Sequence record: OR844768
Reading direction: 5' to 3' (one strand)
Source of the DNA: Escherichia phage ECO111 5-P
Length of the DNA stretch: 46,941 nt
The translations under genes were made by a program, and so were the position numbers. A model generated the notes under the pieces. The model saw only the letters and a program-made list of their open reading frames with translations, was not told where the DNA came from and searched no databases. Below, piece by piece: positions 14,798 through 16,147 of this stretch. Each line of letters starts with the position of its first letter. The stretch's first letter is position 1.

Positions 14798-14826
14798 ATA
14801 AAGCCCTCATTCGAGGGCTTGTTTTT
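14798..14826. terminator. bidirectional hairpin terminator (agccctc-attc-gagggct)
   Basis: Between convergent terminase and dpdA-like genes. Confidence 0.6.
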
Positions 14827-15592
14827 GAATCCATTCTTCAATTGATGGTGGCTTAACGTTCTCCACAGCCCCTTTCAGTATGGCTGCTCTACCTCTTAGA
14901 ATTGTTTGTTTCAACTCCCTTGCATCAAGAGATTTACTGTATTCCGCATCAACTATTGTTCTAGTTAATTCAGGATACTTCTTATCAAATTTTGGCACGT
15001 TGCACGCAAGATTTGTGCTGTCAGCCGTGTGGAGTGGGTAGTTCCCAAGAACTCTTCCGTCAAGCATGCGCAAGCCGTGAATTTTCGTTCTTAGATTTCT
15101 TTTAATGTAAATTTCCGTGAATGCTTCCGTCATTCTTTCGTGCCAGTGTTTAGTCCTTATCACAGCATACTCGCCGGATGACCCAAAGCACACCTTGGGC
15201 CACTCTTCGCATAACCTGACAAGCCTGTCCATTGATTCATGCAGGTGCCATGTAGGAACGGCTTTCTCTTTAAACATTGATGGCAGACTGTCAATGAGTT
15301 TGTCGTTGTCTTCCTCATTTCCATCAATTACGTCTGGAATAATGAAAAATTCAAGTTTCTCATTGTGGTAATGCCTCATAAGCCACTGATAAAATGGAGT
15401 CCAGTCCTTCACTGGCTTTCCGCTTCTCCATGCACTGAATGCTCCATTATCAAATGCCACGCTGCCAGCGGAATCAAGTGCTTTTTTGGTTTGCTGAGGC
15501 CATGCATGTGATACAAATGCACCGCTACCTCTGGTTGCGATCTCCATTACTCCATCACCCCATATTGGCAGACCGTGATAATGATGTATCAT
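14807..15592 (-). CDS. TGT-like DNA transglycosylase (DpdA-like), putative 7-deazaguanine DNA-modification enzyme
   Basis: By-eye similarity to tRNA-guanine transglycosylase core motifs (LDSAGSVAFDNGAF vs TGT LTDSGGFQVF; EFFIIPDVID vs DIVMIFDE); no zinc subdomain; start ATG 15592 in ATGA overlap with yhhQ-like stop. Confidence 0.5.
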   Translation of the reverse strand: MIHHYHGLPIWGDGVMEIATRGSGAFVSHAWPQQTKKALDSAGSVAFDNGAFSAWRSGKPVKDWTPFYQWLMRHYHNEKLEFFIIPDVIDGNEEDNDKLIDSLPSMFKEKAVPTWHLHESMDRLVRLCEEWPKVCFGSSGEYAVIRTKHWHERMTEAFTEIYIKRNLRTKIHGLRMLDGRVLGNYPLHTADSTNLACNVPKFDKKYPELTRTIVDAEYSKSLDARELKQTILRGRAAILKGAVENVKPPSIEEWIQKQALE

Positions 15593-16053
15593 TTTGTTTT
15601 CCTCAAAATTAATGACCATGCTGCGCCGCCGCAAACTTTAGCCACAAATTGACCGGCAACAACTAGCGGTATAAAGCAACCGAAGGCAACAAGCGGGAAA
15701 ATGACAGAATCAACAGCTGATGCTGCTACATTGCTTGCGTTGGACTTTATAAGCCAGTGTTTTTTGATTAGTAACTGGTATACAGATGCATCTGTCAGAG
15801 CTGCGATAGAGAACGAAGCAACACTTGCGATGGCGATCATGTCGGTGGCTGGGTTAATCAAATAACTCAACATACCAGCGATACATATAAGAACTATTAT
15901 TTTCCTGACGCCGACTCTCTCATGCAACTTATCCCTGACCACAAAATCAAGGCCAATAAACAGAAACGCATTTACTGGAGTGATAGCTGGTCCAAATAAA
16001 TGCACTGAGAAATTTGCTGCGCATATTGCTGCTATATAAATTACCGAAAGCAT
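15589..16053 (-). CDS. YhhQ/VUT-family queuosine-precursor transporter-like membrane protein
   Basis: Recalled E. coli YhhQ motifs in order: FxFxxDxxVRxxxxxxxRxII...LSY and IAxASxxA...WL...ASNVxxSxxDSxxF...AF; multi-TM. Confidence 0.7.
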   Translation of the reverse strand: MLSVIYIAAICAANFSVHLFGPAITPVNAFLFIGLDFVVRDKLHERVGVRKIIVLICIAGMLSYLINPATDMIAIASVASFSIAALTDASVYQLLIKKHWLIKSNASNVAASAVDSVIFPLVAFGCFIPLVVAGQFVAKVCGGAAWSLILRKTK

Positions 16054-16080
16054 GTTAACTCCTGTTTGTTGTTCGTAATC

Positions 16081-16109
16081 AATCTACATCACCACCATAT
16101 CTACGTCAA
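16081..16109 (-). promoter_or_regulatory. minus-strand promoter TTGACG-N17-TAGATT (spacer contains GTGGTG) driving yhhQ-like/dpdA-like operon
   Basis: Reverse complement of aatctacatcaccaccatatctacgtcaa. Confidence 0.55.
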
Positions 16110-16147
16110 CATTTATTATTGTTGTTGATAAATCTGCACCACCACAC

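Follow-up and report, generated by a model that had tools for sequence, protein, structure and literature searches.

A coupled VUT-like and DpdA-like gene pair in Escherichia phage ECO111 5-P, a candidate salvage-type module for 7-deazaguanine DNA modification

In the 2019 survey of Hutinet et al. (PMC6884629), phages with a DpdA but no genes for preQ0 synthesis form the largest group, with 76 phages. It was proposed there that these DpdA-only phages may use host preQ0 or exogenous precursors, and YhhQ homologues were found to be encoded by some phages. The present analysis concerns a two-gene cassette of this type in Escherichia phage ECO111 5-P (sequence record OR844768), of which a stretch of 46,941 nucleotides (nt), read on one strand from 5′ to 3′ and called the window below, was analysed at its full length. 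The cassette joins a gene for a VUT/YhhQ-like membrane protein to a gene for a DpdA-like protein of the tRNA-guanine transglycosylase (TGT) superfamily, and is a candidate for a salvage-type module of 7-deazaguanine DNA modification.

In Supplementary Data 1 of the same survey (PMC6884629), HK106, SfI, PEAT2, 7-11, SE131, SEN1, SPN3UB and BTP1 appear as DpdA-only phages, and seven of these eight (all except BTP1) encode direct homologues of the DpdA-like protein of the window. CDKM15, eHP-6 and phiLM21 are also listed there as DpdA-only, each with a YhhQ at the adjacent accession number (PMC6884629), and the RefSeq entry of PEAT2 annotates gp18 as "VUT family protein" and gp19 as "queuine tRNA-ribosyltransferase", that is, the pair itself. 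Such an architecture has thus been recorded before, and the original prediction, which regarded a transporter and DpdA pair without biosynthesis genes as unusual, fails on this point. The window protein belongs to the same DpdA clade as those of the DpdA-only phages (40-63% identity to 7-11, SEN1 and HK106), and the window, like those genomes, carries no preQ0 synthesis genes; some of them also have an adjacent YhhQ/VUT gene. It differs from them in its Guernseyvirinae-like backbone, where the cassette is otherwise rare, and from the surveyed pairs in a shortened, 154-residue transporter and in a 4-nt overlap of the two genes. A literature search found no paper that tests a VUT and DpdA-like pair.

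Other described systems share parts of this arrangement. The dPreQ0 cluster of the Seuratvirus CAjan encodes a DpdA (gp35) and a short VUT protein called "YhhQ" (gp41), both homologous to the window proteins, and genetic work shows that dPreQ0 in the DNA depends on this DpdA (PMC7544227). Unlike the window, CAjan encodes FolE, QueD, QueE and QueC within its 12-gene cluster, its DpdA has 306 residues and a different C-terminal region, and its yhhQ is dispensable and not adjacent to dpdA. The DpdA of the bacterial Dpd system (Salmonella Montevideo, PDB 7ui4) is longer still (413 residues), needs the DpdB ATPase and is part of a restriction-modification island; it gave no sequence-level match to the window protein, and no DpdB was found in the window. 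E. coli YhhQ, a preQ0/preQ1 transporter (COG1738/QPTR), belongs to the same Pfam family as the window VUT and shares four conserved residues with it. Finally, Cap10 (PDB 9ntn), from a type IV cyclic-oligonucleotide-based anti-phage signalling system (CBASS), works with the QueC-like enzyme Cap9 and a CD-NTase on a protein-linked base, whereas neither partner is present in the window.

The original prediction described two coupled genes with an ATGA overlap on the minus strand, and the sequence bears this out. The cassette and its translation signals are as follows:

15589..16053, minus strand: VUT-like gene, 154 amino acids, ATG at 16053, product a putative 7-deazaguanine-precursor importer
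14807..15592, minus strand: DpdA-like gene, 261 amino acids, ATG at 15592-15590, product a putative DNA 7-deazaguanine insertase
16059..16063, minus strand: Shine-Dalgarno sequence AGGAG, 5 nt ahead of the ATG of the VUT gene, read from the sequence
15589..15592, minus strand: ATGA stop/start overlap of the VUT stop TGA (15591-15589) and the DpdA-like ATG, read from the sequence
15600-15604, minus strand: GAGGA motif near the ATGA overlap, ahead of the DpdA-like start

Through this 4-nt overlap the two reading frames are translationally coupled. An upstream TTG at 15634, which would extend the second open reading frame to 275 residues, was rejected as its start, since both the family consensus (MIHYHGTPI) and the structural model begin at the ATG. 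Purifying selection acts on both genes, with ratios of nonsynonymous to synonymous substitution (dN/dS) of 0.09-0.11 against the closest relative.

The DpdA-like protein matches phrog_887 ("queuine tRNA-ribosyltransferase") with an E-value of 5.8e-76. It is recognizable as a homologue of the genetically validated CAjan DpdA already by BLASTP (E 1e-5), and more clearly so when families are compared: its family hidden Markov model (HMM) finds CAjan DpdA at E 2e-23, and hhalign aligns the two families over 175 columns (probability 98.9%, E 2.9e-17), pairing the motif DNGAFS with DSGAFS and ADS with CDS. The protein has no match in Pfam (PF01702, TGT, searched to E 1), NCBIfam or PADLOC. Searches against PDB sequences returned no TGT or DpdA match either, even with a 66-sequence profile, so that a comparison of folds was needed. 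The AlphaFold2 model (mean predicted local distance difference test score, pLDDT, 96.7) consists of a TIM barrel followed by three C-terminal helices, and the predicted fold is the (beta/alpha)8 barrel of the TGT type. In a search of viral predicted structures all strong matches were phage "queuine tRNA-ribosyltransferases", among them proteins of phages on the DpdA list of Hutinet et al.; the best fold match of the protein is Cap10.

In the DpdA of S. Montevideo the active site comprises D95, F99, D130, H181 and D256, and the general pattern of DpdA and TGT sites is a general acid/base Asp, a stacking Phe four residues on, a base-reading Asp and His, and a nucleophile Asp (PMC10164549). Across 66 homologues of the window protein six residues do not vary, namely D48, D87, H116, H172, D191 and S192, and D48, F52, H116, H172 and D191 align to D63, F67, H132, H187 and D206 of CAjan DpdA. 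The register of the second Asp is ambiguous, as in the profile alignment CAjan D105 falls opposite D90 and not opposite the invariant D87. Together with F52, the invariant residues reproduce the DpdA/TGT site pattern. The three cysteines of the protein (C128, C135 and C197) are not conserved, and there is no zinc motif of the form CxCxxC...H; without a zinc subdomain or tRNA-binding extensions it does not match the tRNA-guanine transglycosylase class. The overlapping VUT/YhhQ-like gene supplies the genomic association with a 7-deazaguanine synthesis or salvage gene that is expected of a phage DpdA. On these sequence features the protein is assigned as a minimal phage DpdA of the TGT superfamily, much as the original prediction had proposed by eye (a TGT core, DpdA-like, without the zinc subdomain). 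Its action on DNA, the identity of the base and the level of modification are inferred.

For the upstream gene the same prediction had named the YhhQ/VUT family, and this assignment holds at the level of the superfamily. The protein passes the Pfam Vut_1 gathering score (36.8 versus 27.2 bits), with a match that covers residues 70-141 only, and it matches phrog_4899 at E 7e-42. It stays below the NCBIfam cut-offs (21.6 versus 50.95 bits for TIGR00697; 19.5 versus 252 bits for NF008406, YhhQ), and because of these scores it is classed as a member of the VUT superfamily and not as a YhhQ equivalog. Pairwise, it is 32% identical to CAjan gp41, annotated "YhhQ" or "preQ0 transporter" (E 5e-10), and 24% identical to E. 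coli YhhQ (E 5e-5); PDB sequences, searched with the single sequence and with a profile HMM, gave no YhhQ match. Compared with YhhQ (154 versus 221 residues), some 65 residues are absent, corresponding to an N-terminal extension, two loops and a C-terminal segment, while N14, R40, D88 and D115 are conserved between the two. About five to six hydrophobic segments of 19 residues (Kyte-Doolittle) are consistent with a polytopic inner-membrane protein, and a distant homologue in phage mEp021 is annotated with 6 transmembrane (TM) helices. Nearly all homologues have 154-157 residues and lie on phage-sized contigs; the protein belongs to a phage-specific short VUT subfamily. Its substrate, its direction of transport and its specificity are inferred.

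The genes for making the base were sought in the window by two routes. A tblastn search with FolE, QueD, QueE and QueC of CAjan against the ~47-kb window gave nothing below E 0.1, and a Pfam scan of the other 74 open reading frames of at least 60 residues detected no QueC, QueD, QueE, GTP-cyclohydrolase or QueF. The absence of such genes, and the need to import or scavenge the base that the original prediction derived from it, are thus upheld: in a phage without its own preQ0 pathway, the only sources of a 7-deazaguanine base are the medium and the QueCDE pathway of the host.

At least eight unrelated phage backbones carry the VUT and DpdA-like pair, in one gene order or the other. Two relatives from IMG/VR, out of one metagenome, have it at the same position as the window (DpdA-like identity 96% and 84%), and in the Flyfo siphovirus Tbat1_6 it likewise adjoins terL, the large terminase gene. 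Further copies lie on a contig of a phage with a primase-helicase, on a P22-like contig, in Pectobacterium phage PEAT2 and phage RCIP0319, in the Drexlerviridae phage Phleasolo and its relatives, and, on yet another backbone, on 41-44-kb contigs of Salmonella assemblies. All of these share the 4-nt overlap, which among the retrieved loci (numbered with L) is found in L001, L003-L006, L019, L021 and L022-L027; the reversed order is seen in Acinetobacter phage AB3P2 and in three IMG/VR contigs (L011-L013). In total the linkage was observed at more than 15 loci. It is not symmetrical: a DpdA-like gene adjoins VUT in 10 of the 11 loci retrieved by the VUT protein alone, and VUT is absent from 5 of the 14 retrieved by the DpdA-like protein. 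More than 140 related, Guernseyvirinae-like phages in GenBank match the window only in the flanks, without the cassette, which is therefore an insertion in a variable slot.

The two halves of the cassette do not share one history. In L005 (6151-7394) the VUT gene is near-identical to that of the window (synonymous divergence, dS, 0.27) and the DpdA-like gene is synonymously saturated, while in PEAT2 (L017, 3998-5223) the VUT protein is 71% and the DpdA-like protein 41% identical to its counterpart in the window. On these comparisons the halves have recombined with each other.

As separate observations on the neighbourhood of such loci, L005 and L006 are 84-93% identical to the window in nucleotide sequence across the cassette and the portal-side region, and their terminase region is not alignable at the nucleotide level to window positions 12606-14771; this indicates mosaicism directly beside the cassette. 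Among the Salmonella-associated 41-44-kb contigs with the cassette, in L022, L024, L026 and L027 (~9220-11851), a Mu-F-like head morphogenesis protein has an intein (Pfam Intein_splicing) in some copies (619 residues) and lacks it in others (347 residues). A DUF6378 protein is encoded in the window at 23266-23769 on the minus strand, and in mEp021 (L020, 3499-5235) a DUF6378 protein stands directly upstream of the distant VUT-like protein with 6 TM helices. The mEp021 VUT-like gene overlaps a gene for a 252-residue protein annotated as "cytosine methyltransferase", an alternative VUT partner; that this neighbour might be a diverged DpdA was considered and rejected (hhalign probability 0.5%, no Pfam match).

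The gene structure, the families and fold, the conserved active-site residues, the purifying selection, the recurrent linkage and the missing synthesis genes form the basis for a functional reading, and we lean, by a little, to the view that the pair is a functional and self-contained salvage-type module for 7-deazaguanine DNA modification. More specifically, a host-type promoter of the cassette itself appears to drive its transcription against the direction of the flanking structural genes, and its two genes are translationally coupled. The VUT/YhhQ-like protein would raise the uptake of a free 7-deazaguanine base by the infected cell, most likely preQ0 or preQ1, although another derivative is possible, and the base would be a product of the host QueCDE pathway or a component of the medium. 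The DpdA-like enzyme would then, after replication, swap selected guanines in the phage DNA for this base by the double-displacement chemistry of TGTs, with D191 as the nucleophile, D48 as the general acid/base, and D87 and H116 reading the edge of the base. The expected benefit would be protection from restriction enzymes or other DNA-targeting defences. Salvage of this type is feasible: when E. coli expresses only the DpdA of phage 9g, ~0.3% of plasmid G is replaced by host preQ0 (PMC6884629), and folE and queC deletion mutants of CAjan still reach, by way of host preQ0, about 1/12 of the modification (PMC7544227). It is also possible, if rather doubtful, that the pair acts as an autonomous mobile salvage cassette, which would confer 7-deazaguanine modification on any backbone, tie protection to environmental deazapurines, and exchange its halves to match substrate and enzyme; if true, preQ0, preQ1 and queuine from the microbiota, rather than the host pathway, would feed the enzyme.

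A number of observations weigh against a functional salvage module. The host has its own YhhQ and its own preQ0 pathway, and it is not obvious why the phage would need a transporter. The VUT-like protein lies far under the YhhQ equivalog cut-offs, with the missing segments described above, and most DpdA-like homologues have no VUT partner, given 3190 DpdA-like versus 407 VUT-like matches in a large database. Heavy DNA modification is on record for no member of this DpdA-only clade: in phage 7-11, whose DpdA is 40% identical to the window protein, ~0.02% of G is dADG, and the DpdA-only phage Orion has none (PMC6884629). In addition, deletion of yhhQ in CAjan left the modification unchanged (PMC7544227). 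Because of the trace level in 7-11 and the lack of effect of this deletion, DNA modification by the pair seems less certain than the original prediction implied.

The figure for 7-11 also speaks for a different, though unlikely, explanation, namely that the window protein is a genuine DpdA homologue whose modification is trace-level, site-restricted or conditional, as in that phage. The pair might then be a near-neutral accessory element (a moron), or have a use other than bulk protection against restriction, such as to mark a few sites or to mimic the Dpd modification of particular hosts. With the bacterial enzymes DpdA and DpdA2, modified G stays below 0.1%, the cassette is dispensable in that the >140 Guernseyvirinae-like relatives do without it, and the window has a Lar-type restriction-alleviation gene besides. 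This explanation sits poorly with the strong purifying selection on both genes and the recurrence of the pair on many backbones, and the addition of a transporter suggests that substrate supply matters. A separate doubt is attached to that transporter, which might not supply the transglycosylase at all but handle another small molecule or have another role, such as superinfection exclusion, with the linkage reflecting co-mobility. The sub-threshold YhhQ scores, the presence in the VUT family of transporters for other substrates, the silent CAjan deletion, and the mEp021 protein, whose neighbour is unrelated to DpdA, would all agree with this. Nevertheless, we hold it to be distinctly unlikely, as a DpdA-like gene lies next to VUT at 10 of the 11 VUT-anchored loci, the linkage persists through inversion of the gene order and recombination between the halves, and the sole characterised relatives transport queuosine precursors.

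It is more improbable still that the TGT-like enzyme has a target other than DNA, be it host tRNA (for reprogramming or depletion of queuosine) or, as for Cap10, a protein-linked deazaguanine; in the latter case it might, for example, interfere with 7-deazaguanine-using defences such as type IV CBASS or Qat. Cap10 as the best fold match speaks for such a target. The protein has, on the other hand, no Pfam TGT match, no zinc site and no tRNA-binding domain, its sequence homology is to DNA-modifying phage DpdA, and the window offers no Cap9/QueC-like or CD-NTase partner and no PADLOC match. The tRNAs of the phage were considered as possible support for a tRNA target and ruled out as such, being Arg(TCT) and Ser(GCT) and not members of the Q family.

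What is new in the present locus is not the association as such. It is the short VUT form, overlooked by the 2019 survey both in PEAT2 and in CAjan; its physical and translational coupling to the enzyme within this DpdA clade; and the mobility of the pair across many backbones, which now include a Guernseyvirinae-like phage. Carried by an easily grown phage of the E. coli/Salmonella type, the pair offers a compact two-gene system for salvage-driven DNA hypermodification. It would help to predict the resistance of phages to restriction enzymes, CRISPR and Dpd-type defences, which is relevant to the choice of therapy phages. If the pair turns out to be inactive or active at trace level, it would caution against reading DNA modification from a dpdA gene alone.

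With a length of ~47 kb and a guanine-cytosine content of 45.6%, the window is a whole tailed-phage genome or nearly so, and contains replication, lysis, terminase, portal and tail genes. Its nearest relatives in GenBank, gmqsjt-1 and Sa179lw among them, are siphophages of Salmonella, E. coli and Klebsiella; roughly half of the first 24 kb aligns to them at ~89-91% identity, and the backbone is that of a Guernseyvirinae-like tailed phage of the Salmonella/E. coli type. The features that flank the cassette are the following:

16081..16109, minus strand: sigma-70-like promoter TTGACG-N17-TAGATT upstream of the cassette, from a consensus scan, 9/12 match
14801..14820, both strands: bidirectional intrinsic-terminator-like hairpin with an 8-bp stem, 5 GC pairs and T-runs on both strands
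13353-14795, plus strand: terL (large terminase), convergent with the cassette and abutting it
17580-18992, plus strand: portal gene, separated from the cassette by ~1.5 kb of small plus-strand open reading frames

The original prediction had placed the cassette between terminase and portal, with a dedicated promoter and a bidirectional terminator, and these elements are found where it put them. The hairpin begins 6 nt past the terL stop and includes the stop codon of the DpdA-like gene, and it alone is retained in the centroid fold. The promoter is to be read with more reserve: promoter-like sites in the region are no more numerous than in shuffled sequence, and the site at 16109..16081 counts only as a pattern match. 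A second promoter-like site, TTGACC-N17-TAGTAT (16148-16176, plus strand), is directed away from it, towards the small open reading frames and the portal; the back-to-back sites suggest a possible divergent promoter region at ~16080-16180. Ahead of the VUT gene no Rfam family was detected, the preQ1 riboswitch included, even at E-values up to 10.

Elsewhere in the window, the genes for tRNA Arg(TCT) and tRNA Ser(GCT) are adjacent (35757-35926, minus strand), and neither tRNA belongs to the queuosine-modified GUN family. An 85-residue open reading frame at 24520-24777 (plus strand) matches Pfam Lar_restr_allev with 42.5 bits, above the cut-off, and is a second, independent candidate anti-restriction gene of the same phage. 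In the left half (36-22662), Pfam matches to YdaS_toxin (E 7e-17) and P22_Cro occur beside replication genes for Prim-Pol, a helicase and a Sak4-like protein (AAA_24).

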